62,183 nt of DNA, filler included, from Sphacelaria rigidula (GCA_964200075.2; 3 parts of 3 records of this genome joined end to end with filler, not necessarily neighbours in it), one strand, 5' to 3'. Positions 20,669 to 41,529 are shown, numbered from the whole stretch's first letter. Numbers and translations are program-made. Notes: a model not told the origin generated them from the letters alone.

Positions 20669-20768
20669 NNNNNNNNNNNNNNNNNNNNNNNNNNNNNNNN
20701 NNNNNNNNNNNNTTAATTAATTAANNNNNNNNNNNNNNNNNNNNNNNNNNNNNNNNNNNNNNNNNNNN
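20669..20768. other. Artificial contig linker (N-TTAATTAATTAA-N)
   Basis: 100-nt N block with a central ttaattaattaa (stops in all frames); identical structure at 41430-41529. Confidence 0.95.
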
Positions 20769-22034
20769 TCACACGAATATTCATGTTATGCTCCCGCTAC
20801 TGTCCCCGCGCGAATGATTCGTCACCCCATCGATCAGCATGAAGTGCTCCACAAAACATACCATGTACAACCCATCTATCATCATCCGCGGCGGACTTTC
20901 GCATACACTACTGTTGACACCGGACACACCGCTCGCACGATTACCTTCTATCCACCCTACGTACGCGCGGACAACAAACTGAATGTGGATCGGAACGATC
21001 AGCACGCCCCCACCCTCACTACTTCCGAGGCTTCCACGCAGGCGAAGTCAGAATTTACTTGGGAATAAAGGGGGCGCACTCCCCCTTCGTCAAACGCAAC
21101 ACACACAAATAACTCAACCAATGACGGAAATGAAGAGGACGCACTCGCTGTCGCCAACGTCATCTACAATGCAATTGCGCCCTTGCAAAAACAGCAACTG
21201 AGCCTTCGATTTGACTGCGAAACGTGATACAATCGTAACACGCACTACTAGACAATAGCCTCCACTCGAAGCTGCACAGAGTCATGAGATGAAAACACTC
21301 TTTGCTGTCAACAGCCACGGCGCCTCGTCTGACGGCAGTTTCCGACGGTACGTTTTGGCTGCGTGAACCTGGAACGACGAACTCATCGCTTAGGTGCATG
21401 ACTCGCCCGAGGATCACGTACCCTACGTTGTTACAAGATCTCGTGTCGAGATGAAGCGTCTTGGCAGTGCTGCTTCTACTACGCGGGCGTGTCAGTTAAC
21501 TCCCACCGCACCGTCGCGGACGTGTTGGATGACATCCGGCGCACCGCCGGGTCGCCGCCCGCACACATATTTCACCATGCCGTTGCCCTTTCGCCTCTTG
21601 CACCCCCTACCTCGCCTCGACGGTGTGCTCCAAGGCTCATGTTTTGGGACAGTTTGTCCACGCCGAGTCTTGTTCCTGCTTTGCAGCATGTCGTGGTGGA
21701 ACGAGAGGGTCGGAGAGTCGACAGCGCGAGGGGCGTTCGTTGCTCGAAGTATACTCGACAGCGAAGGGTACAAGCTTACTACAACGGTGGAGACACGGTG
21801 CATGAGGAGATGCGGTGAGCAACGCGGGATTGACTCTGCAGACCCATGGCGAAGAGCACGCGGGAAACGGAGGCCGACACTGCCTTGCTCCGTCTCTTGT
21901 CTTTCCTCTTTCGCGCGGTGTCGGCACCGGACATCCCTTGCGAGAGGACACCAGGCAACAACAGCTGTATGAAAAAGTACTAATCGTCACCGCACGCAAT
22001 CACAGTGCCCCATGCATACCGGAGTCGGACTTAC

Positions 22035-25000
22035 AGTCATCGCTCTCCTTGCTGTCTTTGTCATCTTTGCTGTCCCTGTCATCCTTGCTGTCCTTGCCGC
22101 CCCTCCTCCTCTTGCCACCCCTCTCCCTCTTCCCGCCCCTCTTCTTGCAGCAGTCGCGCTTGTCGCAGTCACCGTCGCATGTGATGTCGCCCCCCACAGA
22201 CTTCCACCCCTTGGGACAACGGTAGTCGCGGCACTTCTTGTCTTCTGTCGCAGCCAGACGGAACCACAGGGTCACCCAATGTGAGGAATATCAAGCTAGA
22301 AGTGTTCCCGACGCAGCAGTCGTCGATCGCATCGTATCGACATCACATCTCGGGATACCCTTGACGGCAAGTCGCTCGCTCTTGTCGAATACTAGTTCAA
22401 ATATACTCTTGACCATACAATGCACTGGACAGACTGTCGGCGACAGATACCGCCTGCTCTTAGTTCACCTCGCGGCGGCGCCAACCCGGGCGCAGCAGCG
22501 TCATCAGGTATTTGAACCAGTGGTGGCGTGGGCATCACACTCGATGATATCGACCGCGACTGCAAGTACCGGGTCTTCTACACTGCTTACCCTTCTCGCA
22601 ACACTCGCGCTTGTCGCATTCGTCGCGGCACTTCTTGTCACCGACGTTTTGGAAGCCGCTGGGGCACGTGTAGTCGTCCTTGCACGTCTTCACCTCTGAG
22701 GATGACACGGGAGGTAGCAAGAGAACGCCATTGTCGCGTCAAGTAACAGTGGCACGCTACGGAGGGACAGGCCAAGCGAGAATGAAGCTCCATCTTTCCC
22801 CACCCCTGCTTCTAGCGGGGACACCTGAAACGTTTCTTTTCTTCTTCTTCACTGGTTGTAAAACGCGTACAAATCTGCATGGCATGTGATTCATATCGAA
22901 GTTACAGCGAAGCCCCAGGTAGTCTGGTGCCCGGTTTGTTGTCGCCACGTCAAGGTCGCGATCGGGACGAATGGGTAATCGAGATTGACGCAGGGGATGC
23001 ACGACTCGTCATTCCACATCCGCAGAGAACAAGTGTTCCCAGTATTTCGGCCGACGCTTTTGGTTGCATCCAAGTCAAGTGTCGATTACGACTGCTGGCA
23101 TCGGATCCTCCGAATACTCACCCTTCTCGCAACATTCGCGCTGATCGCACTTGCCGCTGCACTCCTTGTCACCGCGGTTGAGGTAGCCGTCAGGGCACTT
23201 GAAGTCGTCCTTGCATGTCTTCACCTCTGCGAAGAATACAGCAGCGGACGGATGAACGTCACTGTGGCGTTCGAGCTACAGTAACATATTGTGCGTGAGT
23301 TCTGAAGATGTGCGGTGGACCGCTCCACTGTGCCCCTGTGCCGTGCACCGATACGTTCGACAGGGACTATCGCACAGCATGGTTGTTGTTACACGAAAGT
23401 GCTGCCGTTGGTGCTGCGCTTCTGCCCCCCCAGGGTCTACACCACAGTCACGGCATCAGACGCCGGGTCCTACGATAGGGACGGGGAGTCTGCACGATCC
23501 TACCCCGTGTTGATGAACCTCTGTGTGGGAAACACATTGTCAAGTGATTTTTGATACGTGCATCATGCTGACATCGAGTTCTACTCGCATGAGAGCTGCT
23601 TCCAGCGACGTTGTACCGAGCGAGTGTACCATCACGACTTTCGGCGACACTGACAACACGTTGTGACTCATGTCTGATGACTGATCTCTGGTGACTCTTG
23701 TTTTCGTGTCGTAGCAAAAACGCTCCGGACCATCATCGATCACACAGCCGTGTTGATCGTCCATGTGAGACCTACATAACCCGCAGTGTGTAGCGAGCGT
23801 CTTGTGCTGTGGAGCGTACCCACAGCGAAGACCGGCCTTGGGGTATTGCGTTTTTCGTTGACTCACCCTTCTCGCAACACTCGCGCTTGTCGCATTCGTC
23901 GCGGCACTTCTTGTCACCGACGTTCAGGAAGCCGCTGGGGCACGTGTAGTCGTCCTTGCACGTCTTCACCTCTGAGAATGACACGGGGGGTAGCAAGATA
24001 ACACCATCGTCGCGTCAAGTAACAGCCGCGCACTACGGAGGCACGCTACGGAGGAACAGGCCAGGCGAGGATGCAACTTTGTATTGCTTCACCTCTGCTT
24101 CTAGTGGGGAAAAAAACTAAAACGTGTTCTTTTCTTCTTGTTCGCTGTGTATCGGTGTTGCAACGGAGCCACGAATAGTCTGGTGAAGCCCAGCTTTTTG
24201 TCGCCCAGTCAAGGTCGCGATCGGGACGAATGGATCATGACGTGCAAGGCTTTCACGTCTGGGAGGTTTCCTCTCCGTACGGGTTTCAAGTTCGAAGTAT
24301 AGAACCAATTTCCGCGACAACTCTGCAGAGTTGTCCCTCGACCACGATAGTGGCTTCGGTTCTCGAATGTTCAGCCCAAGGTATCATGACATCATATTTG
24401 GCGTAGAAATTGATGCATCGGAGACGAGTGTCTACATGTCGACGAGTCCAGTTTTCTATCCTGCATCCCGACCTCGGAATTTCTGCATCGGTCTCTAGGT
24501 TCAGAGATACCGTTGCACCGACGCGAGGGGTGCACGACTCGTCATTCCACATCCGCATAGGACGAATGATGTCCCCAGTATTTTGGTCAACGTTTTTGGT
24601 CGCATCCAAGTCAAGTGCCGGTTACGACTGCTGGCATCGGATCCTCCGAATACTCACCCTTCTCGCAGCACTCGCGCTGGTCGCACTTGCCGCTGCACTC
24701 CTTGTCGCCGCGGTTCCGATATCCGCGGGGGCAGGTAAAGTCATCTTTGCATGTCTTCACCTCTGCGAAGAACACGGCAGCCGACGAATGGATGTCACTG
24801 TGGCGTTCGAGCTACAGGAACGTATCGCACGGCATCGTTGTTGTTCCACGAAAGTGCTGCCGTTGGTGCTGCGCTTCAGCCCCCCCAGGGTCCACACCAC
24901 AGTCACGGCATCAGACGCCGGATCCTCCTACGATAGGGGCTGGGAGTCTCGTACGACCTCACCCCGTGGTGACACCTTCTACGTTAGCCCCCCCCCCCCA

Positions 25001-28000
25001 AAAAAAAAACCGGCTCAAAGTGCCACGAAACAAGTGGCCACACAGCGCCTGATGTTCGGGTTCAGGCTGCATGAGACACCTTCTGTCATGTTGGCGACAT
25101 TGGCTACAACGAACCCAAGCGTGGGAATTCCCAGCCTCTCGTTGTGCTCGGCTTTTCCCATTTCGATTTACGTGAAGATTTTGCCTCCCAAAACCATGCA
25201 CTTTTTTGGGGGGGAGGGGGCTATCGTAGAAAGTGTCTGGTGATGAACCTCTGTGTGGGAAACACACTGTCTAGTGGTTCTGATGCGTGCATCATGCTGG
25301 CATAGAGTTCTATTCGAATGAATGCTGCTGCTTCAGCGACGTTGTAACGAGTGAGTGTACACGAGTGGCCAGTGGGGTGCCTGCAACCTCAAATGTGGAC
25401 GTTACAAATGATGCACAACGTCTGTAACGTCCAAATTGGAGGTTGCAGGCACCCCAGTGGCCACCCGTCTACCGTCACGGGGCTTCGGCGACACCGACAA
25501 TACATTTTGTTTGATGATTGATCTCTGGTGGCTCTTGTTTTGGTGTACCAGCTAAAACACTCGGGACAATCAGCGGTCACACAGCCATGATGACCGTCAA
25601 TATACGACCTACGGAATCCGCAGTGTGAAGCGAGCGTACTATGCTGTGGAGGACACCCATAACGAACACCGGCCTTGGGGTATTGCGTTTTCGTTGACTC
25701 ACCCTTCTCGCAACACTCGCGCTTGTCGCATTCGTCGCGGCACTTCTTGTCACCGACGTTCAGGAAGCCGCTGGGGCACGTGTAGTCGTCCTTGCACGTC
25801 TTCACCTCTGAGAATGACACGACAGTCAACGAACGGGTCTCATCTCGGCGTGAAGTATCAACTGTACACCACTGGAGAAAAAGCCATGTCGGAATAACGC
25901 TTCATGATTTGTTGCACTTCTTATCATTTTGAGAACACCCAAACAATGCGCACACAACCATGTATTGAGATGTGATTCAGAGCGGTATCGATGTCCAAGC
26001 CGAAGGTATCTAGCGATGCTCGGCTCTCCGTGTCCAAGTCAGGGTCGCGATCAGGGCGACTGATTCGAAGAGAGAACGGCTCTCGCAGTCGAGAATCGAA
26101 GTTTAGGCTCGTTTTAGCCGATAGTTGCGGGAGGTGGCACGATTTTGAATCGAGGAAACCTACAGTTTGTTGACCCCATTGTGATCTAGAAACGCATGCC
26201 GGTATATATGTTAGTGTACTTCCTGTCACTCCACACGGGCCTCAAAAATGACCGACTATTCCGCGCTCCCCAGTTCGAAGGGTTTGCCTGTTTTGCTCAC
26301 GCACGCCTTGATGTAGGCGAGGGGCCGAAAACAATCCAGGGAGCCCGAAAATTGTCGTATTTCGCCCGATTCCGGGCGGGAAAATTACACAACCGGCCCA
26401 CTCTACTTGCTCTACTTGCTGATCGCATTCCAATCAGACGTCGATCGCGACTGCAGATGTCGCGTCTTCCAAGACACTCACCTTTCTCACAACACTCGCG
26501 TTGGTCGCACTTTCCACGGCACTTCTTGTCACCGCGGTTCAGGAAGCCGCGGGGGCAGACGAAGTCATCCTTGCATATCTTCACCTCTGCAACGAAAACG
26601 GTATCCATTGGCTGAGTGTCGTCGTGGCATGCAAGCGAGCATTGCATGCTATCTATCCCTGACCTTTCATGATGTGATGTTGACTGTTCTTCACGGTGTA
26701 CCGATACACCTCTGATGTCCTCCAAGTGATCACGTTATTTACTCCACCACGCCGTTTCGCCACATGCATGACCTGCACGTTGTACCGAGCTCTACTGTCC
26801 CGTAGACATTTCCATTCTCACTCCACGTGAAACTTGTAACAGGCACGTGGGCCAGCTGCTTCGAACGTGTCAGTGCCATCAACGATCAACTGGAGAGTTT
26901 GCTTCCCCCAGACACTCACCCTTCTCGCAACACTCGCGCTTGTCGCAGTCGCCGCTACACTCCTTGTCGCCGCGGTTCAGGAAGCCGCTCGGGCAGGTGT
27001 AGTCGTCCTTGCATGTCTTCACCTCTGAGGCGGACACGACAGCGGTGACGTTCTCTTGAATGAGATACGGTAGCTGGTTTGTAGCACGCGAGATCTGCGG
27101 TTTGCGTTAAGCTTGCTTCTTCGTCCGCTCATGCTGGATTACTCCGGCTTTGCAGGCAACTCGACCCACTCTTCGATCGAGTGGGGTGCTCCACTACACT
27201 GTGATGACCAACGTACTGGCGACGGTGACTAATGCATGACGACTCGTGACGCGTGGCACTACAGCGTCCCGACAGCATCTTCGATGTATCTGGAGGGTGG
27301 CTCGGCAGAAAAAAACACGACGTTCGCGCCCGGCCAGGAGCAAGGGTGGTGACAAGAGGGTCCCCCCTCGGTCGTCATGGTCCTTGTGCTGTATGCATAC
27401 CCTCAAGATGATGGCAAAATGTTTTATAATGATAGCTGATCGCTTGGACCGTACTCAACCCGATTGTACACTACAGCTGCAGGTATTGCTCCTTCCAGAT
27501 CCTTACCCTTCTCGCAGCATTCTTTCTGGTCGCACTTTCCACGGCACTCCTTTTCTCCGAGGTTGAGGTAGCCGCGGGGACACTTGAAGTCGTCCTTGCA
27601 CGTCTCCTTCTCTGTAACGGCCAAAGGGCATCAATAAATCACCCGCGTTGCCTCGTTTCGCCGGATCTTCCATAGACCAAACATTTGGCCGTTCAAAACG
27701 AAGGTCGTGGTCGACGGCACAAATGCGACTGGATTGTTGCACACGCCTGTTGGGCGTGGGCGATGCGTCTTCAACACGTTGCATCCCATCGACAACAGCG
27801 GGGCTATGTGTGTACTGTCTGTGCACTGCAACTCTACGCAGTGCTTCCCGAAGACACTCACCCTTCTCGCAGCATTCGCGCTTGTCGCACTTGCCGCGGC
27901 ACTCCTTGTTACCGACATTCAGGAAGCCCCTGGGGCACGTGTAGTCGTCCTTGCAAGTCTCCACCTCTGCGACGGACACGGAAGCCAAGCGGTGGATGTC

Positions 28001-31000
28001 GTCATCGCGTCCAAGCAACGTTCAAGCGTAATGGGCCACTTTCACAGCGGAGAACGCACCGGTGAAACCCAGGGTTCTTCACCTCGACACACTTTCAACT
28101 ACTTCAAACCTGATCTGTTCCATCTAGGTCACATTTTCGGTTATCTGCGTATTTGTATGGGTTTTAGAGGCGTATACTTGGATCAGGTGAATGTTGACCT
28201 CGTACTCGGATCACGTGTAGTGATCTGAAGCGATCTAGATCATATTCATATCACCTTTTACCGAGATGAATCCGAGATCTGGGACGCATGCCTCTAGCGG
28301 TACACGTGTGACACATGAGTATACCGAATCGGACCAGTACACCTGCACCGCGTCAACTCGCATGCGCATCTGCCGAGAACGGAACTCGCAATACTCGGGC
28401 CTAACGGTGCCAGCTGTACCATCAGGCCACCGGGTCGCGGAGAAAACTCCCTCATGAGTACGAATGCCTCGTACACGCTTACAGGCATCATAATTACGAT
28501 TTGGTAAACTCTCACCAGCGCCATGTCGTATTGTTTGCGTCCAACGTACTGCGCCATGTCCGCGGCCACCAAATTTCTTGTCAACGGCGAAAATACATTT
28601 GCACCAGTTCTTCATCCCACCTCTGCAACATCAAGGGCACGCGATATCGACTGCAGTCGATAGTAGGTATCGCTCCTGTCGGGTACTCACCCTTCTCGCA
28701 ACATTCGCGCTGGTCGCACTTGCCGCTGCACTCCTTGTGACCGCGGTTGAGGTAGCCGTCAGGGCACTTGAAGTCGTCCTTGCACGTTTCTTTTTCTGTG
28801 ACCACNNNNNNNNNNNNNNNNNNNNNNNNNNNNNNNNNNNNNNNNNNNNNNNNNNNNNNNNNNNNNNNNNNNNNNNNNNNNNNNNNNNNNNNNNNNNNNN
28901 NNNNNNNNNNNNNNNNNNNNNNNNNNNNNNNNNNNNNNNNNNNNNNNNNNNNNNNNNNNNNNNNNNNNNNNNNNNNNNNNNNNNNNNNNNNNNNNNNNNN
29001 NNNNNNNNNNNNNNNNNNNNNNNNNNNNNNNNNNNNNNNNNNNNNNNNNNNNNNNNNNNNNNNNNNNNNNNNNNNNNNNNNNNNNNNNNNNNNNNNNNNN
29101 NNNNNNNNNNNNNNNNNNNNNNNNNNNNNNNNNNNNNNNNNNNNNNNNNNNNNNNNNNNNNNNNNNNNNNNNNNNNNNNNNNNNNNNNNNNNNNNNNNNN
29201 NNNNNNNNNNNNNNNNNNNNNNNNNNNNNNNNNNNNNNNNNNNNNNNNNNNNNNNNNNNNNNNNNNNNNNNNNNNNNNNNNNNNNNNNNNNNNNNNNNNN
29301 NNNNNNNNNNNNNNNNNNNNNNNNNNNNNNNNNNNNNNNNNNNNNNNNNNNNNNNNNNNNNNNNNNNNNNNNNNNNNNNNNNNNNNNNNNNNNNNNNNNN
29401 NNNNNNNNNNNNNNNNNNNNNNNNNNNNNNNNNNNNNNNNNNNNNNNNNNNNNNNNNNNNNNNNNNNNNNNNNNNNNNNNNNNNNNNNNNNNNNNNNNNN
29501 NNNNNNNNNNNNNNNNNNNNNNNNNNNNNNNNNNNNNNNNNNNNNNNNNNNNNNNNNNNNNNNNNNNNNNNNNNNNNNNNNNNNNNNNNNNNNNNNNNNN
29601 NNNNNNNNNNNNNNNNNNNNNNNNNNNNNNNNNNNNNNNNNNNNNNNNNNNNNNNNNNNNNNNNNNNNNNNNNNNNNNNNNNNNNNNNNNNNNNNNNNNN
29701 NNNNNNNNNNNNNNNNNNNNNNNNNNCTTGTATAATCGAAATTGCTAACCCAACGACAATCTGACCAAGAGCGGACCTCGACCAGTGCTGACTTGCGGAG
29801 TGAGCGGATTAGTCTAGCCCCCACATTCCCCACCAAGAGCATGGATATCGCCTTCTCAAGGCGTTGCACGTGAGTGTCGACGGCGGAACGATGCACGTCC
29901 TGTCCGTGCACCACAGCACGTGTCGCTCCTGACGGAGTTTCTCACCCTTCTCGCAGCATTCGCGCTTGTCGCACTTGCCGCGGCACTCCTTGTTACCGAC
30001 GTTCAGGAAGCCGCTGGGGCACGTGTAGTCGTCCTTGCAAGTCTTCACCTCTGCGATGTACACGGCAGCCAATGGGTGGGCGTCGTCATCGCGTTCCAGC
30101 GACGCTGATGCACTCTGTTACTGAAGAGTGGTGGGCCGCTCCAAAGAACAGTGAGTATGAATCGCCAGTACTGGCATCAGTGATGTACTCTCTAGTTCGT
30201 TGTTTTCGTCGTACTTCCAACCCTTCCTCTTCCTGGGGACGGGCCCGTGGTCTCACCGGGTACAGGGCTTAATTTCGGTATCGTAGGTTGGTTGAACATC
30301 CCCGCACGCTGCCCAGTCTCGTCAGATAGACTTCACAGTACAATCTCGTCACACCAGCAATATATGCGTTATTCCTACTGGGCAGCTCCATGCCCGCGTT
30401 CACTACCGTATGCGATATCCCAGCCCCCATCCGTCATATCCAAACCGAATGCTGTGGACCGCAGCTAACCGCAGGTGGGTACAACGTTGCTTCCTTTGGA
30501 AACTCACCTTTCTCGCAGCATTCGCGCTGGTCGCACTTTCCGCGGCACTCCTTGTCACCGCGGTTGAGGTAGCCGTCAGGGCACTTGAAGTCGTCCTTAC
30601 ATGTTTCTTTTTCTGTGACGCACAAGTAACGCCAATAGATCATGCAACGTGTCGCGCATGGGTATGTCAATCTCAAGCTTGCCTCATTCAGTAGGCCCTG
30701 CTTCGAAGCATCGTGGGTGGCCACGGCAAACTGGGTTCGGTACCGGCAGCATACGCGCTTGAGGTGTACGCAGTTCGTACGCATGACCCAGTTCTTGGCC
30801 ATTCAGGACCAATCCAATAGCTCCAACGCTGACCACCACGGGAGTTGCGCTGCCTCCGACACACGAGTCGATCATCCTCACGACACCCACATGTTCATGA
30901 TGTGCTGGTTGTTCCGGCTCTCTTTCGATGATTCCTCGCCACCAACGATATAATAATATTGCCATCTAAGACCAACTGACTCATCGTCGTTGCCGCGTCG

Positions 31001-31450
31001 TCGTGAAACTAGTGACTAGTGCACTATTTCCGATCCAACTGCGATGGTTTTGTACTGCGTGGGAAGACCGCGTGCTCAGAGCACCGCATGGTAGTTCATA
31101 ACACCCCAGGATAGACGCCTGTCATGACCAATCGGGCGGGTCTCTACAGGAACCATGCCTCTGACCCTAACCCCAACCTTCAACTCCAATGCAGCCCTCC
31201 AAGCACGCGGTTCTCCCACATATTACAGTTCTTCTCGAATAACGTTCCGATCCGGTTTTCGCAAGTGGTGGGCATTCCTCATCGATTTCAACTGTCGACT
31301 CATCGTCCACCACCAAGACATGCAACCGTCTGGACGTCGCTTACCCTTGAAGCAGCAGTCGTACTTGTCGCACTTGCCGCGGCATCTCTTGCGGTCGTCG
31401 CCAATTGGCTTCCAGTCGCCGGGGCAAGAGAAATGCTTGCACCTGTCACG
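22035..31450 (-). CDS. Cysteine-rich tandem-repeat protein, one 6-Cys module per exon (14 modules visible; start and stop unresolved)
   Basis: Exons in transcription order: 31345-31450 (divergent, RDRCKHFSCPGDWKPIGDDRKRCRGKCDKYDCCFK); twelve 105-nt cag|...G|gt exons at 30508-30612, 29946-30050, 28691-28795, 27862-27966, 27507-27611, 26920-27024, 26482-26586, 25703-25807, 24658-24762, 23867-23971, 23122-23226, 22591-22695 (consensus EVKTCKDD[YF]xCPxG[FY]LNxGDKxCxGxCD[KQ]RECCEK); and 22035-22244 (divergent module plus K/R/G and D/K/S tail, then a GTAAGT donor or read-through to TGA at 22000). All exons are open and have canonical splice sites. Confidence 0.9.
24242..24518. mobile_element. MITE-like insertion, GTGCAA...TTGCAC ends
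   Basis: Absent from the paralogous intron at ~22985; flanked by TGAC/CGAC (near 4-bp TSD). Confidence 0.6.
24971..25237. mobile_element. MITE with TIR GACACCTTCTACGTTAGCCCCC / GGGGGCTATCGTAGAAAGTGTC, 4-bp TSD TGGT
   Basis: TIRs and TSD visible; empty site in the paralogous intron at ~23508-23511. Confidence 0.85.
25360..25469. mobile_element. Tc1/mariner-type MITE (110 bp, TA TSD)
   Basis: Near-perfect palindrome TA|CACGAGTGGCCAGTGGGGTGCCTGCAACCTC...GAGGTTGCAGGCACCCCAGTGGCCACCCGTC|TA; empty site gagtgTAccatcac at ~23627; second copy at 39275-39489. Confidence 0.85.
28806..29726. other. Assembly gap inside the cysteine-exon array
   Basis: ~920 N. Confidence 0.99.
31051..31227. mobile_element. 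TGTA...TACA MITE with telomere-like core (degenerate copy)
   Basis: tgtactgcgtgggaagaccgcgtgctcagag ... accctaacccc ... aagcacgcggttctcccacatattaca; flanks GTTT/GTTC. Confidence 0.7.
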
Positions 31451-34305: not shown

Positions 34306-35768
34306 GTTGGCCACCACCGCACCCTTTCAGCTCGGCGTATATGCGTATATACTGTACAAAAACAACAAAACAACCATCCGATCCCCTCTGTGCTACACGT
34401 GCAACATCGGCATGTCAATGTACGGCAGTGCGCGAGATTTATACTATACATCACCTTGCGGCCACGGGAGGTGAGGTCGCGATGTGTGTCTGCTGGGTCA
34501 AAATCCTCCTGATTAGCAATTCCGTGCTCCCCGCCTGCCGGCACGAGGCCGCAGCGAACACGAGTAATAAAGGCAGACGTTGGGGTTAGGTCAGCGCATG
34601 ACGCCACCAATGTGATACACGGCGGAGACGAGACACTTTTTCACCATGTCGGTGTACCGTCTTAGCAGCCAGCCTAGAAGCTTGAAACCTCCTACCGAAC
34701 AGTTCTCGACAAGCGCAGCGACATATCACGAAGTTTACCTACTCTTGTCATCGGGGGATCGCCATGCTTGTGCTCCGATAGCTTCCCTGTACTCGAGGGT
34801 GTTCACACAAAGCATAATGTCGTGACTGCCCACATCGGAGTGAAGAGAACGTGGGTTGAATTCCCACCAGATGCATTTCTTCCCTTTCGACATAGAGTAT
34901 TTCCATCGTCGAACGCGGGAGGATGTAAAGAAACATGAATTCAGCCCTGGAGACCACGGATTCGTCGTAAGGAAAGGGAGGGGTACATATTGTGTGACGA
35001 AAAGAATCGTGTGCCGATGACATATCAGACACGGGATTCTACAAATCGGGGATGGATCTTTTATTTGGGGATGAAGACCCGGGGGATCGAAGTCTTCGTA
35101 CCATACTAAATCTTCCAAGTACGCTTCCATTCCTCCCCTAGCTTGTAGCTTCTGACAACCACTACACGCCATACAAGTTTGGATCCCGATAAACCGAAAT
35201 GTCGGGGTCTCAGGTGAACAACCAATTTTGGCGTCCGATCGGACACCTAAAATCGCTCAAATTTGGGGGGTATGCGCGGCCCTCTAGGGGCAAAGAAAAA
35301 AGCCTCTGGAGATGTTCAATCCCTCTGGAGGAAAGCCAAAAATCTTCTCTGGAGGGTCGCGCACTCCTCCGGAGGCGTTTAATTCCCCTCTGGAGACTCG
35401 AAAATTTTACCCACCTGGAGGAATTTTAGAGGTGGCCAAATGGACGCGTGTGCGATGATTGGTTGCTGTGATACCACCCCCTTGCTCCCCCCGAAAAGTG
35501 CCAACAGAAATCGCTTCTTGCAAAAGTGATATCGTGACATCTCAGATGGGAACGTGAAACATCCCGTTGACAGCGGGATGACGGAGGTCGTGACAGACAA
35601 GTCAACACAATCGAACGTGAACCTGAGGATCGTATTGCCCTCCTGAACCGAAACACACCGCTCATTTCACTGCTGCTCATCAGCCGGGCATGCTGTGCTC
35701 GACCCTGCTCAAATCGGTTCAGAATTCAGGGAGAACTCCGACTTGCGTGAGACGCGCGCATTGCACAC

Positions 35769-38054: not shown

Positions 38055-38780
38055 CCACCATCAGTCCAGAAAGGACAGTTCAATTCAAATAGTGGGCACC
38101 TGAAACGAGCGTAGGAGGTCGATCGTCCAAAACACCGCCGTGGGTGACCCAGAGAAGTGTGCGGTGCTCAAGTCGCATTATCCGCGGGATACAAACAGCA
38201 CGCTATAGCAATGAGCTGCCGAATATGTGTGTCCTTCCATAACGACGCACTTCAACTGTTCAAATATAATCTGGGGGCTAGCCTGCCCAACTTGGTACGA
38301 GTACAAGAGGTTCAATCATCCACCCAAGTCGCCACGCGACGCCCGTTGAAGTGATACTCGAAATCTCAGTCATCAGCTGCTCACTCAATACCAGCAAGCA
38401 GGTGCAGTGAAAGCCTGCGCGTCGTCAGCAACACACGATTGTATACTCGTTCGGATAATTTCAACACACTCATCCGCTATGGAATACTATATACCATTAC
38501 ATCACCAGCGCTCGGAACAAATCCCACCGCACTGTGTGCACTGACCTTCAGGTTCAACAACAGCGGTGGATCCACATGCCATACCCAGCAACAGCAAAAA
38601 AAAGGCTGTTTTCTCGCCTCGGATCTTCATGGTAGCCCTTGCTCTCGAGAAGTGAAGCTGCTAGGAGGTCGAAGGTGGTGTGAAATTGCTGTTGCACAGT
38701 ACACCGGAACGGGAGTAGTCTTGGTGAATGAGAGAGGAAGGGGTTGGGGTGTGGGATGCGGGGATGGGGGGGAGGGGGCG

Positions 38781-41429: not shown

Positions 41430-41529
41430 NNNNNNNNNNNNNNNNNNNNNNNNNNNNNNNNNNNNNNNNNNNNTTAATTAATTAANNNNNNNNNNNNNNN
41501 NNNNNNNNNNNNNNNNNNNNNNNNNNNNN
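41430..41529. other. Artificial contig linker (N-TTAATTAATTAA-N)
   Basis: Same structure as 20669-20768. Confidence 0.95.

Follow-up and report, generated by a model that had tools for sequence, protein, structure and literature searches.

Alternating cysteine-module exons in a Sphacelaria rigidula gene: a probable dimeric higher-order exon repeat

Why should twelve small cysteine-rich exons of one brown-algal gene follow one another in a strict A-B-A-B order? The question is raised by a stretch of Sphacelaria rigidula DNA of 62,183 nucleotides (nt), filler included (GCA_964200075.2; three records joined end to end; hereafter the window), in which an exon array on the minus strand occupies roughly 22 to 31 kb. 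The initial annotation of this stretch proposed that two exons, encoding together a pair of 70 amino acids (aa) and 12 cysteines, might be the functional or the duplicating unit. We find that the alternation is probably that of a dimeric higher-order exon repeat, in which pairs of exons were duplicated and gene conversion then acted within each exon type, rather than the sign of a new protein unit.

To define the array, we scanned all six frames for the cysteine pattern C-x4-6-C-x8-14-C-x2-4-C-x3-5-CC and found 14 matches on the minus strand as against 0 on the plus strand. A search by nhmmer --max with a DNA profile of the core exons returned the identical 14 places (E 1.1e-32 to 5.1e-06). 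With the speed filters off, the next match in this search had E = 1, so the introns of the array appear to hold no relic or decayed exons. Twelve of the matches are core exons of 105 nt each, with symmetric 1-1 phase and GT-AG introns; cag precedes the start and gt[ag]ag follows the end in 12/12. Each core exon encodes one 35-residue module with six cysteines in the spacing C-x5-C-x11-C-x3-C-x4-CC. The array is capped by single divergent modules, N0 (first) and C0 (last). When we checked the borders of the 12 core exons, their low ends agreed exactly with the initial annotation. The array is listed below in the order of transcription; related proteins carry P numbers, sequencing runs carry X numbers and introns are named by the exons that they separate.

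31345..31450, minus strand: N0, divergent first six-cysteine module exon, 106 nt, phase 0 to 1 (nhmmer E 1.9e-08)
30508..30612, minus strand: A1 core exon, starts EKETC, DDF…CDQ (pattern scan, borders, nhmmer)
29946..30050, minus strand: B1 core exon, DDY…CDK (pattern scan, borders, nhmmer)
28806..29726, no strand: run of 921 N within intron B1>A2, entered from either side by loose ends of DNA runs
28691..28795, minus strand: A2 core exon (pattern scan, borders, nhmmer)
27862..27966, minus strand: B2 core exon (pattern scan, borders, nhmmer)
27507..27611, minus strand: A3 core exon (pattern scan, borders, nhmmer)
26920..27024, minus strand: B3 core exon, with the B diagnostics but A-like NR and KECSG (pattern scan, column comparison)
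26482..26586, minus strand: A4 core exon, of a DDFVCPRGF type that is also kept in the relatives P0006, P0011 and P0041
25703..25807, minus strand: B4 core exon, nucleotide-identical to B5
24658..24762, minus strand: A5 core exon
23867..23971, minus strand: B5 core exon
23122..23226, minus strand: A6 core exon, a mosaic whose first 14 nt and both flanks are A5-like and whose other 91 nt are A2-like
22591..22695, minus strand: B6 core exon (joint 22244>22591 in X6)
22035..22244, minus strand: C0, divergent last six-cysteine module, followed by a basic and then an acidic low-complexity tail
22696..25702, minus strand: the two youngest units, with introns B4>A5 and A5>B5 homologous to B5>A6 and A6>B6 (blastn)

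The order in transcription is A1 B1 (gap) A2 B2 A3 B3 A4 B4 A5 B5 A6 B6. DDF…CDQ is present in 6/6 A exons and DDY…CDK in 6/6 B exons, and the strict alternation that had been described for the core exons therefore holds for 12/12 assembled exons. The added claim that it runs even across the N gap stands for the assembled sequence; it does not extend to the content of the 921 N. Since perfect alternation accounts for 2/924 orders of six A and six B exons, the alternation is not chance. Among 50 variable nucleotide columns, three (25, 36 and 84) tell A from B in every exon, and five more fit at least 10/12 exons. The aromatic residues are swapped reciprocally between the types, with F9/Y15 in 5/6 A exons and Y9/F15 in 6/6 B exons; A4 is F9/F15. 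In runs of two other studies, we found that introns B6>C0, A4>B4, B3>A4 and B2>A3 are wholly covered by contigs with 0 differing letters. These contigs reach 19-31 letters into the flanking exons, which falls below the 31-letter bar for bridging; those that reach at least 25 exon letters include the diagnostic columns. X6 and X1 both have contigs with the whole of intron B2>A3 and 25-31 letters of each flanking exon.

We then compared the introns, and found that a two-exon unit was duplicated in part of the array. Intron B4>A5 aligns to B5>A6 in four collinear pieces of 79-88% identity, and intron A5>B5 aligns to A6>B6 in two collinear pieces of 68-87% identity (blastn); the recent duplication of an intron-A-intron-B unit, which the initial annotation had read from this region, is thus confirmed by collinear pieces in both intron classes of units 5 and 6. 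At a more sensitive setting, intron A4>B4 aligns to A6>B6 in three collinear pieces (60-68%) and to A5>B5 in one piece (69%). Introns A1>B1 and A2>B2 are alike over their last 54-61 nt (79-81%), and introns B1>A2 and B2>A3 are alike over 56 nt at 66% (E 0.025). The sensitive intron comparison gave no alignment between the introns of unit 3 and those of the other units. Units 4-6 arose by unit-wise duplication, with the weaker likeness in unit 4, and the same history is likely for units 1-2.

The flanks of the exons preserve an older layer. The intron starts are recognisably alike after all 12 core exons. The upstream intron end of A1-A3 is of a type of its own and goes with an EKETC start, and A4-A6 combine an EVKTC start with the upstream flank type of the B exons. 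Both upstream flank types recur in the exon-plus-flank open reading frames (ORFs) of relatives, and the flank types are therefore older than the split from those relatives.

The exon bodies tell of a further process. A6 differs from A2 at 7 positions in its first 14 nt and at 2 in the other 91 (Fisher p 4.8e-06), and it differs from A5 at 0 positions in the first 14 nt and at 16 in the other 91; the 70-nt flanks of A6 are 83% identical to those of A5 upstream and 93% downstream. A6 is a mosaic of A5 and A2 types, which we attribute to gene conversion, the A2-like part being the probable incoming sequence. Among the B exons, B4 and B5 are identical and B6 differs from them at 2 nt, whereas the introns of those units are only 79-88% alike. 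The synonymous divergence (dS) is 1.32 for A5-A6, 0.057 for B5-B6 and 0 for B4-B5. At the other end of the array, B1 and B2 differ at 3 nt and A1 and A2 at 7 nt, and their introns are mostly unalignable. This pattern points to homogenisation of B4/B5/B6 and of B1/B2 by within-type gene conversion. B exons as a whole are nearer to their own type than to their neighbours (0-16 vs 15-27 differences).

The exon structure, the alternation, the intron homologies, the A6 mosaic and the spliced junctions at two introns are observed. We propose that the array would have started from an ancestral pair of module exons, A and B, that had already diverged. Unequal crossing-over would then have amplified the intron-exon-intron-exon unit, and later gene conversion of exon bodies, mostly within type, would have carried A2-like sequence into A6 and homogenised B1/B2 and B4/B5/B6. 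Recombination would favour the more similar partner, and because of this preference both processes would keep the alternation without any selection for alternation. Every module would meanwhile be under purifying selection individually. Mean dS is 0.81 for A-A, 0.29 for B-B and 0.78 for A-B comparisons, and dN/dS (nonsynonymous to synonymous divergence) is 0.12-0.21. We infer that the alternation as such is neutral.

Six observations weigh against this account of pair duplication and within-type conversion. First, the separation of A from B in an exon tree, which the initial annotation had expected, was recovered only weakly: the A|B split is present in the maximum-likelihood tree with support 72/86, and in 69% of bootstrap trees. 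The best-supported split (96/96) instead places {A1, A2, A3, A6} against {A4, A5, all B}. Pairwise differences per 105 nt are 0-16 for B-B, 7-26 for A-A and 15-27 for A-B, and A4 and A5 are as near to B3 or B4 (15-19 differences) as to the other A exons (16-26). Since A4 and A5 group with B and the A-A dS equals the A-B dS, the A type is heterogeneous. Second, when relatives were added and the end modules used as outgroup, the B exons of the window grouped with P0013 (83/75) and the CDQ exons formed an unresolved comb. The best tree does not unite the CDQ exons in a single clade, and constraining them to form one costs 3.9 log-likelihood units and is not rejected (approximately unbiased test, p-AU 0.32). 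The end modules and the paralogue P0002 mostly have K at position 29, so Q29 is probably the derived state of the A type. Third, the introns of units 1-3 are unalignable beyond at most 61 nt, and unit-wise duplication there is only inferred. Fourth, the introns that lead into B1 and B2 end like those that lead into A4 and A5. This likeness crosses types, so exchange was not strictly within type. Fifth, the distance matrices of A-A and B-B are not mirror images in the AB register, where Mantel r is 0.18 and 216/720 permutations reach at least that value; for the BA register the corresponding figures are 0.52 and 6/120. Because the A and B distances are unmirrored, gene conversion must have shaped the pattern besides unit duplication; together, the A6 mosaic, the B homogenisation and these matrices indicate that exon bodies were exchanged independently of introns, mostly between exons of the same type. 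Sixth, F9/Q29 in A and Y9/K29 in B are kept despite a near-saturated A-A dS, as type-specific selection would likewise predict.

We looked in the read data for other arrangements of the exons. None of the sequencing runs listed with matches is recorded as RNA; X6 and X10 were taken as RNA-like from their intron-spanning exon joints, and contig depths and X6 intron bins without cover were not used for ranking expression. In X1 and X3, we found a minority DNA joint, 25810>26781, a possible structural variant that skips 970 nt comprising A4 and its downstream intron. Its depth is 213 as compared to ~800 for unique contigs in X1, and 33.7 as compared to ~250 in X3. On one side of the joint is the intron that follows B3, and directly on the other an exon whose start is like that of B4, B5 or B6; the shorter side has 25 letters, and the F/Y codon lies beyond the letters covered. 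If the joint is an allele of this locus, it may represent a B-B neighbour. A contig in which the 5' part of A1 is joined to the 3' part of A2 is present in X3 (a DNA-type run) and in X6; it is either an A exon missing from the assembly or the one-unit deletion product expected when A exons exchange unequally. X6 also has joints of N0 to an A2-like exon, of N0 to A3, of B1/B2/B3-type exon ends to C0, and of a B2-type end to an exon start unlike any assembled exon. In several of these odd joints the letters at the junction are changed. The joints suggest exon skipping or additional copies, be they gap exons, alleles or paralogues. Beyond B1, a loose end continues into a start of the EVKTC type, whereas in the public gene model A2 is the exon spliced to B1.

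X1 also contains, at ~1/5 to 1/4 of the depth, a second haplotype or strain. It differs at 28102-28284, where a 181-nt stretch of intron A2>B2 is replaced by 39 other letters, and at many single positions, for example in 22257-22299, 23241-23304 and 30631-30724. X3 has it too, and at 22257-22299 has no other form.

The alternative that survives best is that the A-B pair (70 aa, 12 cysteines) is itself a selected structural or functional unit, with selection removing arrays that contain AA or BB. We consider this unlikely. It would account for the presence of the diagnostic residues in all 12 exons although the A-A dS is 0.81, for the reciprocal aromatic swap (F9/Y15 in 5/6 A against Y9/F15 in 6/6 B), and for B homogenisation that left the intervening A exons intact; however, homology-dependent recombination together with ordinary purifying selection would be expected to yield all three as well, and A4, with F9/F15, does not take part in the swap. 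It would also fit the X6 joints, since 7/8 of the listed non-adjacent joints that touch N0 or C0 lead from N0 to an A start or from a B end to C0; several odd joints have changed junction letters, however, and so come from other copies and not from this array. Single modules also occur without a partner. The array is capped by N0 and C0, and P0002, a protein of S. rigidula by source name that is encoded on another contig of 5,959 nt, consists of an N0-like module, one core module and a C0-like module with a similar basic tail. One module is moreover predicted to fold on its own: the single-module model, built from a 28-row alignment, has a mean predicted local distance difference test score (pLDDT) of 78 and a predicted template modelling score (pTM) of 0.37. 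The core exons of relatives (n = 13, from cluster representatives and not a census) comprise 7 F/Q, 1 Y/K, 2 F/K, 1 Y/R, 1 F/R and 1 F/E, such that 5/13 are neither F/Q nor Y/K. The 70-aa, 12-cysteine pair of the initial annotation can be kept as the duplicating unit, in units 4-6. As the functional unit it is not needed, and the single end modules, P0002 and these five exons speak against it.

A second alternative is selection against identical neighbours, which might mis-pair or co-aggregate; any two alternating types would then suffice. That adjacent near-identical domains are disfavoured is a principle known from tandem immunoglobulin and fibronectin type III domains. Its appeal here is that B4 and B5, which are identical, are never adjacent, and that neighbours differ at 15-27/105 nt as compared to 0-16 between B exons. 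Yet the protein similarity of neighbours in this array is far above the level at which that principle operates, and unit duplication explains the same fact; we regard this alternative as quite improbable. If we ask more broadly whether the alternation is selected at all, either as an A-B heteropair or as the lack of identical neighbours, with conversion and copy-number change allowed in whole-pair steps only, our answer is that it probably is not. Were it true, the encoded protein would be extracellular and variable in length, and its real repeat would be a double module of 70 aa and six disulfides, with a fold not yet in Pfam or the PDB.

An assembly artefact, or chance labelling of a noisy repeat, is hardly credible: a 921-N gap lies in the array, B4 equals B5, and the exon k-mers are repeated so that short-read contigs break at each exon, but the introns are unique sequence, four whole introns are covered with 0 differing letters by contigs from two other studies, and chance yields 2/924 such orders.

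Taken together, these data favour a dimeric higher-order exon repeat that grew by pair duplication, and they place it in a single gene. The window holds further exons on the same strand:

38546..38630, minus strand: candidate exon 1, 85 nt, with an ATG and a hydrophobic N-terminus that resembles a signal peptide; its end is in phase 1 and followed by gtcagt
34455..34534, minus strand: exon 2, 80 nt, acidic pro-region ending in basic RGRK (X10 loose end upstream of N0)
21600..21675, minus strand: first part of the 3' exon, in which the final two stop-codon letters are followed by the 3' untranslated region (X6/X10 loose ends)

Candidate exon 1 is the sole ATG-started ORF with a hydrophobic core that we found between 34600 and 41000 on the minus strand, and its donor and phase are compatible with exon 2; phase and composition suggest that it is the signal-peptide exon. 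The loose end of X10 contigs upstream of N0 maps to exon 2 with 1 mismatch in 30 letters. At the other end of the gene, a loose end at 22034 (X6, X10) maps to 21645-21674 with 0 mismatches. When the 16 coding exons were joined by their coordinates, they were open for 580 codons with 85 cysteines, and all 16 introns were GT-AG. In the mature part, K makes up 16% of the residues, C 15%, D 14% and E 11%. Most likely, 22.0-31.5 kb, the exon at 34.5 kb and probably the exon at 38.6 kb form one minus-strand gene. Its product of ~580 aa is probably secreted, and its 14 modules would carry three disulfides each.

Spliced junctions are present at two introns. Joint 30612>31345 was found in X6 (4 contigs) and X10 (1 contig), joint 22244>22591 in X6 only; both have CT..AC ends and match the predicted intron borders exactly. 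Loose ends show that a B4-type exon end precedes A5, that a B-type exon start comes after A5, and that an EVK-type start comes after B3. These joints and loose ends indicate that transcripts contain both A and B exons and that the two types are not mutually alternative.

The public gene models that we found for the module family in S. rigidula are partial only. The only named identical protein was P0001 (61 aa), recorded as 'unnamed protein product, partial [Sphacelaria rigidula]', which matches part of B1, spliced to A2, at 100% identity. P0001 is in all probability the public gene model of this very contig, and not independent evidence about the N gap. At this locus, 61 aa thus compare with ~580 aa. 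We found no full-length multi-module model when we used P0001 as query (2 longer and 10 near matches) or P0002 (0 longer).

Several features of the surrounding sequence are recorded here in their own right. The TGA stop is built across the last splice (T | GA; 22035 / 21675), such that the last intron, of 359 nt, lies exactly at the coding end. About 20 nt at the start of the introns that follow core exons are conserved across the exons and the ORFs of relatives (GECL[ERG]E, GEY[LS]ED), and this conservation exceeds the splice-site consensus. Within intron B4>A5, 24853-25486 looks like a very high-copy insertion resembling a miniature inverted-repeat transposable element; it contains an inverted repeat of 128 nt, 83% paired, as well as long homopolymer runs of G/T and C/A, and its summed word depth in DNA-type runs is ~5e5 to 1e6 as compared to ~800 for unique contigs. 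This insertion accounts for intron B4>A5 being longer than B5>A6. The array contig is the middle piece of the window (20769-41429, 20,661 nt), bounded by N44-TTAATTAATTAA-N44 linkers at 20669-20768 and 41430-41529 that have stops in all six frames, and features are not readable across the linker joins. Pfam found 0 families in nine long ORFs elsewhere in the window.

To identify the module, we searched by sequence and by structure. Pfam assigned no family at gathering level to the 14 modules; Shisa_N alone was matched, in 4/14 modules with a best E of 0.015, and PF19114 (EsV-1-7) matched 0/14 modules at E up to 10. A sequence-profile search of the PDB gave no match better than E 0.039. Fold searches with the 33-residue single-module model returned nothing (Foldseek, 0 at E up to 10; VIA-align wide, 0 with Z of at least 2), a weak test at 33 residues, and the structure atlas searched with P0002 gave no lead (best feature score 0.77, template modelling score 0.40 or less). 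Metagenome scans gave 109 matches to the protein pattern, 0 of them confirmed, and 7 loci for the DNA motif at which the motif alone matched. The profile search of representative proteins yielded 40 matches at E of at most 0.001, and we retrieved 20/40; Pfam found nothing usable for the module in 13 hit proteins. The long matches with several matching stretches, all of which covered only part of the profile, were set aside: P0003 and P0004 (Sushi-repeat proteins) and P0017 (cEGF match) as unrelated, and likewise P0018 (no family) and P0022 and P0037 (sub-threshold matches). P0002 is transcribed, as seen in an X10 contig with a loose end at 31352. P0016 and P0029, distant proteins of three to four modules, share the pattern C-x2-[FY]-x-CP-x-G-[WFY]…C…C-x4-CC; their linkers are rich in Thr and a hydrophobic segment lies C-terminally, a layout that would agree with an extracellular module. 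As it stands, this cysteine-module gene is unannotated and lineage-restricted, with a module that has no family assignment, and it is badly under-annotated, with a 61-aa model in place of ~580 aa and 14 modules. If its product is a component of the extracellular matrix, it would be a candidate for brown-algal cell-wall biology.

How does this array compare with known systems? EsV-1-7 has His in its pattern and is probably a zinc finger. The module described here, in contrast, has 6 Cys and no His, comes with a probable signal peptide and has no PF19114 match. Outside preprint supplementary gene lists, our literature search for comparable cysteine-rich repeat proteins described from Sphacelaria or brown algae led to EsV-1-7 (PF19114) alone, a brown-algal short cysteine-rich repeated motif of a lineage-restricted family (bioRxiv 10.1101/2024.02.19.579948). 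With EGF-like, Sushi and Shisa_N domains, the module shares a central hairpin-like motif, C-P-x-G-[YFW]-x(3)-G…C, and weak partial matches to Sushi proteins and Shisa_N; however, these matches span only profile positions ~7-27, and the terminal CC doublet and the spacing differ.

As genome biology, the alternation is an expected outcome of known mechanisms. Multi-exon units have been amplified in LPA, with its two-exon kringle-IV type 2 repeat, and in CR1, with its long homologous repeats of seven CCP modules. The array resembles these in its symmetric-phase exons for small disulfide modules and in a multi-exon unit amplified by unequal crossing-over, with copy-number variants expected and concerted evolution between units. 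It differs from them in that every exon encodes an entire module and the unit pairs two subtypes of one module, in that it belongs to a brown-alga family without a Pfam model, and in that conversion is exon-limited while the introns are diverged or unalignable. It is a small, clean case of an exon-level higher-order repeat that combines unit duplication with type-restricted conversion in an independently multicellular lineage. A-type and B-type monomers also alternate in the dimeric higher-order repeats of alpha-satellite DNA, and there, as we propose here, homology-dependent exchange keeps a strict two-monomer alternation for which a function of the pair is unnecessary. Alpha-satellite is non-coding; in contrast, the repeat in S. 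rigidula is made of coding exons, separated by introns of 250-1150 nt and under purifying selection (dN/dS 0.12-0.21).

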